A stretch of DNA of 64,000 bases, from positions 122,574,001 through 122,638,000 of the forward strand of contig OZ024741.1 of NCBI GenBank assembly GCA_964016885.1. Direction: 5' to 3'. The translations under genes were made by a program, and so were the position numbers. Numbering within the stretch: the stretch's first letter is position 1; every line of letters starts with the position of its first letter. The stretch is from Eledone cirrhosa. Lineage: Eukaryota. This document shows, in pieces, positions 47,700-48,230 of this stretch. Under the pieces are notes generated by a model. That model was not told the DNA's origin. It searched no databases and was given only the letters and a program-made list of their open reading frames with translations.

Positions 47700-48230
47700 A
47701 GTATGTACACGTACATACATATATGTATACAGACGTATATGTACGTACGTGTACATACTTATATTTAAGTACAGCCGTACTAAGAGTGGGAAATGAAATT
47801 TGGTTTCATTTTTTCCGTTTATCGTTTTCGGTGCACCCGGCCGATTAACTCCCTCGATATACAAATTGGGCTACTCAGCCGTTAATATGCATAAGGTAAG
47901 TATATACGTTCAACAATCTGGCAGGAAGGTATACGTTGCTGACGATAGCTAATAAGCTTGAAACTAGTACAGCGTTCCTTTGTGAGTGTTGAACAAACGA
48001 GCAACGATGGTTGCTAGACACTACGGCTTAATACGGGATGTTTGTTTACAAACACACCGAGCATTATAATAAATGTTCGGTGAATCCATATGTACATATA
48101 TATATGTGTGCATGTGTGTATATATATACATACTACTGTACGTCTGTATACATATATGTATGTACGTGTACATACTTATATTTAAGTAACAGCCGTACTA
48201 AGAGTGGGAAATGAAATTTGGTTTCATTTT
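47700..48230 (+). mobile_element. Diverged retrozyme-like unit: 417-bp monomer with terminal redundancy and a short inverted 5' piece
   Basis: atatttaagt...ggtttcatttt occurs at 47761 and 48178; 47700-47737 is inverted. Homologous to the array units at 59020-64000. Confidence 0.85.
47933..47975 (+). ncRNA. Minimal type I hammerhead ribozyme
   Basis: acgttg CTGACGA tagct-aata-agctt GAA ACTAGT A cagcgt. Confidence 0.92.

Follow-up and report, generated by a model that had tools for sequence, protein, structure and literature searches.

The 417-bp repeat at 47700–48230 of the window (the whole 64,000-nt stretch of DNA analysed) is one copy of a dispersed, ORF-less hammerhead tandem repeat with Penelope-type ends. 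We regard it with good confidence as a non-LTR retrozyme, the likely circular RNA of which would be copied in trans by the enzyme of a Penelope-like element (PLE). We preferred this explanation because the exact minimal-hammerhead pattern had 28,523 matches genome-wide (4 for the reversed control), because opposed arms form tailed/untailed pairs whose outer ends are joined to (TA)n, because 5' starts are spread over the unit, haplotypes are common to both arms and base pairing is retained, and because the insertions resemble those of Hydra-clade PLEs. The original prediction had treated the repeat as a diverged homologue of the array units at 59 kb; it does not stand alone but is a member of a large family with two sister families.

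Anatomy of the window copy and its relatives

The window copy begins beside a pure (TA)n tract (47559–47699), the host landing site, which borders the outer edge of a short inverted arm (47700–47737, minus strand; unit positions 370 to ~410) that terminates at the no-tail (N) site. The plus arm meets it head-to-head with a 2-nt overlap, starting 5'-truncated at 47736–47769 (unit positions 384–417) and continuing through one complete 417-bp unit of subfamily A, our reference unit (47770–48186, plus), into the tail (48187–48229, plus; unit positions 1–43). The tail usually ends at position 53, where it joins (TA)n; here it stops 10 nt short, at position 43, against an unrelated repeat. The adjoining sequence at 48230–48870 belongs to a different head-to-head repeat family, and a deletion between the two elements probably removed the final 10 nt. 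The expected unit length was recovered, with a period of 417–418 bp, and the ~70-bp terminal redundancy proposed for this copy proved to be a direct repeat of ~77 bp (47736–47812 versus ~48153–48229), whereas 47700–47737 lies outside it as the inverted arm. Identity between this unit and the array units at 59 kb was 74–77%. No ORF of at least 150 aa lay over the copy, its local GC content was 0.33 (below 50%), and its tandem anatomy indicated no LTR organisation.

The minimal type I hammerhead predicted at 47933–47975 (plus) consists of helix I, a CUGACGA core, helix II with a U-U at its base, GAAA and a palindromic helix III, and would cut after 47969 (GUA). An extended helix I with a 3-nt bulge is predicted around it (47908–47994, plus) in all families. 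Downstream lie a 10-bp hairpin (48056–48081, plus), in which three pairs differ from those of the array unit by compensatory changes, and an internal imperfect TA/purine-pyrimidine tract that, with its complementary partner, is predicted to form one long hairpin within the unit (48086–48176, plus). Rfam gave no hammerhead match on the element; its miRNA matches there scored below gathering and were rejected as TA-repeat artefacts. At 47895–47903, where an 8-nt hairpin half has been lost in subfamily A, the sequence reads as a perfect 5' splice site, which is absent from subfamilies B and C. Just upstream of the copy, 44240–47293 (plus) holds an intact-looking, (AAT)n-ended reverse transcriptase (RT) element of 1017 aa (RVT_1), possibly of an R2/R4-type clade.

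The host genome is 3.0 Gb in size and TA-rich. We took the first 100 pattern matches on contig C1 regardless of similarity, and best-match loci were added; one segmental duplicate (in L158) and one locus whose tail arm breaks off early (L162) were left out of the counts. The sampled loci formed a ladder of subfamilies, with A (the window copy) at one end, B (the array) and B2 at the other and intermediates in between; the subfamilies evolve as whole units. First-look candidates numbered 983 for the window unit and 2,920 for the array unit. Variant hammerhead patterns yielded the two distant sister families, E (1,035 candidates) and F (most of the 100 matches listed out of 5,465), with units of ~470 nt. 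Further hammerhead-like motifs and fold-back repeats beside TA tracts occur in the window at 10731 (plus), 11313 (minus), 11402 (plus) and 4297–4383, and probably belong to other PLE-derived families.

The subfamily B array opens with an inverted, tail-ended arm (59021–59208, minus), followed by tandem units of ~480–490 bp (59205–64000, plus) that run ~49 kb past the window. In total it contains 86 hammerheads, and a host spacer is repeated 15 times, which shows DNA-level duplication: a single inverted insertion, the TA sequence flanking it and a host spacer have been amplified together into a higher-order satellite.

Insertion ends and predicted RNA structure

Mapping the collected copies, as the original prediction had proposed, showed 5' starts over the whole unit and two fixed end sites, one immediately ahead of the unit junction (N) and one ~58 nt further on (T). 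The outer ends were joined to (TA)n in 68 of 74 cases at N and 60 of 65 at T. The 85 A/B loci yielded 54 head-to-head pairs, comprising 40 N/T, 3 N/N and 0 T/T pairs and 11 in which one arm was cut off or interrupted; 38 clean N/T pairs were left once one duplicate and one broken arm had been removed. The three automatic N/N calls (L002, L026 and L101) were rejected, as two continue into the tail and one ends before the site. In family E, 15 of 16 pairs were N/T and the remaining one had a cut or interrupted arm; in family F, all 11 of 11 were N/T. Thus, the tail was restricted to one arm in 64/64 cleanly classifiable pairs (A/B, E and F), with 0 tail/tail pairs; it measures ~58 nt in A and ~70 nt in E and F. 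Fixed ends, a one-sided tail and an inverted partner arm are together the known insertion signature of PLEs, which the original prediction had missed. At one further locus (L150:6385-7270), a single tail-ended arm has inserted into a non-TA target, a Hydra endonuclease region, where 9 bp of the target are apparently duplicated.

The microsatellite had been thought to belong to the element rather than being its landing site alone. It does lie inside the A/B units in imperfect form, as an expandable purine-pyrimidine hairpin, but it is not required. The longest pure TA run within the unit was 5–6 repeats in A and C, 11–16 in B and 2–3 in E and F; because E and F have no internal run of more than 3 units, the internal tract is dispensable. 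Furthermore, 128 of 139 outer ends abut pure (TA)n, indicating that TA is also the landing site.

The base changes described in the original prediction were all confirmed. Helix I reads ACGTTG/CAGCGT in the window copy and ACGGTG/CATCGT in the array, a G-U/U-G swap, and the only other ribozyme differences are at N7 (C versus U) and in loop II (AATA versus AAGA). The hairpins at 48056–48081 and 59772–59797 both fold as 10-bp stems (z of -6.8 and -4.8, respectively) that differ by three two-sided changes with the G-U pair and the loop unchanged; single mismatches in the equivalent hairpin of some intermediates indicate that this compensation was stepwise. RNAalifold analysis of 18 units predicted 81 pairs, 11 of which showed two-sided changes. 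In a sample of 65 units, one per locus, variant states common to at least 3 loci kept pairing in 17 of 21 cases (8 two-sided), whereas private states did so in 21 of 73 (Fisher P=2.7e-5), in a test that derives the structure from the same sequences and counts states, not independent events. Between families, helix I, helix II (AGCU/AGCU in A/B, AUGU/ACAU in E, UUGU/ACAA in F) and a long-range 7-bp stem linking the tail to position ~255 vary yet stay paired. The circular minimum free energy of 7 units (25 shuffles each) gave z from -4.8 to -11.3 for the plus strand and from -3.7 to -8.5 for the minus strand. These sequence comparisons support the proposal that plus-strand RNA structure is under selection.

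The palindromic look of the copies, together with the DNA-level growth of the large array, could suggest a DNA satellite or MITE-like element that spread by a DNA mechanism and acquired its hairpins through inverted-repeat conversion. This explanation is largely refuted for the dispersed copies, and applies only to secondary array growth, by their polarity (3' ends fixed, 5' ends free), their unequal arm ends, covariation that tolerates G-U, and a hammerhead core conserved between families whose similarity is otherwise patchy (~67%); we consider it highly improbable.

Template and enzyme

The 147 mapped 5' starts covered every tenth of the unit (7–22 each) and were mildly non-uniform (P=0.027), in a sample that carries some bias. 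Starts near the predicted cut (198–206) numbered 2, versus 3.2 expected; 7 of 147 fell at 163–171 (P=0.04, uncorrected), and no excess is claimed there. At least 2 hammerheads were present in 35 of 149 arms. Few starts at the cut, together with arms of several ribozymes, indicate a template continuous across the cleavage site, that is, a circle or an uncut multimer. The plus arm of the window array, which begins ~3 nt or less from the predicted cut, counts against our explanation. Reverse transcription around a circle or multimer had originally been proposed from the monomer-plus-overlap form. Multi-unit copying and permuted starts bear this out, whereas the form itself arises because the 5' start is random and the 3' end is fixed.

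The overlaps at head-to-head junctions were mostly within a few nucleotides, and two coincided with perfect palindromes. Both arms had a rare variant in common in 18 of 32 insertions (null 0.028), but for no more than 11 of the 32 was the cross-arm distance the best-ranking one. In one family F insertion (I1), 17 of 17 units, both arms included, were identical, and the 20 units of another (I2) carried 7 fixed differences from I1. Each of 8 multi-unit F insertions had a private haplotype fixed over all units, with no polymorphism in common. One haplotype per insertion suggests that each passed through a monomer bottleneck and then expanded, as would be natural for a circle, and a single haplotype in both arms, combined with crossing of the ribozyme site, fits a circular template. 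Periodic variants (ABAB in L153 and in F insertion I7, period 3 in one arm of I2) show DNA-level duplication, which could likewise produce uniform long arms. A dimeric circle was considered for L153 and rejected, as the 5' partial unit mismatches the alternation. Very young F insertions at G000:C1:30,830,800-30,841,800 and C1:56,386,500-56,402,800 (L339-L342), with opposed arms of 7+13 and 11+11 hammerheads and nearly or fully identical units, are the best material for the circle question.

Between the two templates we favour the circle: circular RNA is probably what was copied, and a multimer is a clearly weaker candidate. The same PLE machinery might have used uncleaved linear multimers transcribed from tandem loci, with the ribozyme incidental or serving another step and with long arms arising by DNA-level expansion. 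The anole PLE, the one such element assayed in vitro, did not need ribozyme cleavage and worked mainly on uncleaved RNA (PMC11167929), which also counts against our explanation. DNA duplication is evident from the periodic variants and from the higher-order array, and uniform source arrays, which would yield uniform offspring, do exist. We nevertheless find this account rather doubtful, since a private haplotype fixed over both arms of each young insertion would need a monomer bottleneck at every step, and since the 13 catalytic-core columns held 0 shared versus 5 private variants, in a sample partly chosen on an intact core.

With a circular template, tandem copies would be transcribed and paired hammerheads would excise monomers, which would then be ligated. 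A dimer of the PLE RT/GIY-YIG protein would nick the TA tract on both strands, and priming would occur at the no-tail site on one strand and at the tail site on its counterpart; each RT would cover a variable distance round the template, and the two cDNAs would be joined head-to-head at short overlaps or hairpins. DNA-level duplication would afterwards lengthen some arrays. More tentatively, and with slightly less than even confidence, we suggest that each head-to-head insertion may be one concerted event, in which a PLE dimer would act on a single circle from two fixed starts, each serving one nicked strand of the TA tract, with both subunits travelling round the circle for up to 10 or more laps. 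If so, the families would be a genome-scale record of rolling-circle retrotransposition, and the Penelope tail and the inversion would be explained together.

A possible source of such an enzyme is represented in the window by a 5'-truncated Hydra-clade PLE (50533–53835, minus) with a 597-aa frame; its endonuclease gave 64,145 first-look candidates, and intact 834-aa frames occur elsewhere in the genome. It carries RWR, DKT and CxCX5C motifs; its 3' region of 1.5 kb has a tail of 135 nt, an internal TA/TG tract and a hammerhead-like motif whose helix II is long. Autonomous pairs of this type were N/T in 7 of 8 cases, the exception being a tail/tail pair with similar flanks on both sides. Its DNA shows no similarity to the retrozyme unit, and Pfam detected nothing on two PLE fragments. 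The helper is probably of the Hydra clade. No helper sharing unit sequence was found in the window Hydra family, the Hydra family flanking L150, single-arm flanks or variant hammerhead patterns, and in the Hydra families sampled, a few of the many among the 64,145 candidates, no pseudo-LTR (pLTR) shared sequence with the unit. The L150-flanking Hydra family and a second repeat there were rejected as helpers because both are nested insertions. Elsewhere in the window (468–2700 and 3773–3817, minus), another PLE-like ORF is represented by its N-terminal portion, and upstream of it is a canonical type I hammerhead that matches Rfam RF00163 at 29.1 bits, a score below gathering.

The copies might instead be solo pLTR remnants with 5'-truncated ends that an autonomous PLE left behind, and not an RNA that replicates on its own. 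Retrozymes are described as resembling PLE pLTRs (10.64898/2026.07.22.740005), and in the autonomous Hydra family, too, a hammerhead-like motif and an internal TA/TG tract lie in the 3' region. On the other hand, the units stand head-to-tail with no intervening ORF, subfamilies evolve as whole units, and a scan of 271 element-bearing loci (overlapping ones included) found no consistent link to a Hydra ORF; we therefore judge this origin quite unlikely. The retrozyme unit, being without an RT plus GIY-YIG ORF, is not itself an autonomous PLE.

Comparison with known systems

Non-LTR retrozymes are an already known class, and every feature of the class that we tested was present here. Like those of other metazoans (Cervera and de la Pena 2020, PMC7229834), the elements are short ORF-less tandem repeats with GC below 50%; each unit contains a type I hammerhead whose helix III is palindromic and is predicted to form a highly paired circle, and axolotl HHR_Amex2 has the same U-U at the foot of helix II (PMC7229834). 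Their units of 417–490 nt are at or above the 150–450 bp range given there, and head-to-head pairs, two fixed ends and (TA)n targeting are not among the retrozyme features that we took from that paper. Circular RNA has been demonstrated for metazoan retrozymes (PMC7229834), whereas the circle here is predicted from sequence. Outside subscription journals, Repbase and supplements, our literature search found no publication that deals with this family and none that reports a strictly asymmetric tail for retrozymes.

The insertions share with Hydra-clade PLEs (Craig et al. 2021, PMC8557442) 5' truncation, partial tandems, an inverted 5' copy, an often one-ended tail, a hammerhead and (TA)n insertion. 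They differ in having no ORF, in a tail of 58–70 nt compared with 30–40 nt, and in a one-sidedness that is near-absolute here but described as "often" in PMC8557442. In the in vitro system of the Anolis Poseidon PLE (Frangieh et al. 2024, PMC11167929), two internal RT start sites likewise delimit the tail, the target is AT-rich, both strands are cut and extended, and a dimer is predicted; unlike the present elements, that PLE is autonomous and uses a linear template. The allocation of one start site to either strand is not among the results that we took from that study, and the strands did not differ in vitro.

Vertebrate retrozymes have been interpreted as non-autonomous PLE derivatives (Li et al. 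2026 preprint, 10.64898/2026.07.22.740005), the same conclusion on origin and mobilisation as ours. Their argument is based on co-occurrence and pLTR homology, whereas ours is based on insertion anatomy, with no homologous pLTR found. In the same preprint, 8 of 9 retrozyme dimers tested were without cleavage, which speaks against our explanation. PLE-driven mobilisation and rolling-circle copying are given as proposals, with the mechanism not demonstrated, in that preprint and in PMC7229834. To this published work, the present analysis adds a quantitative insertion anatomy, for which our search revealed no printed counterpart: young, high-copy, ORF-less families in which the PLE insertion signature is complete, the asymmetry of the tail is close to absolute and each insertion has a single haplotype. 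Such families provide a precise in vitro prediction together with short natural substrates.
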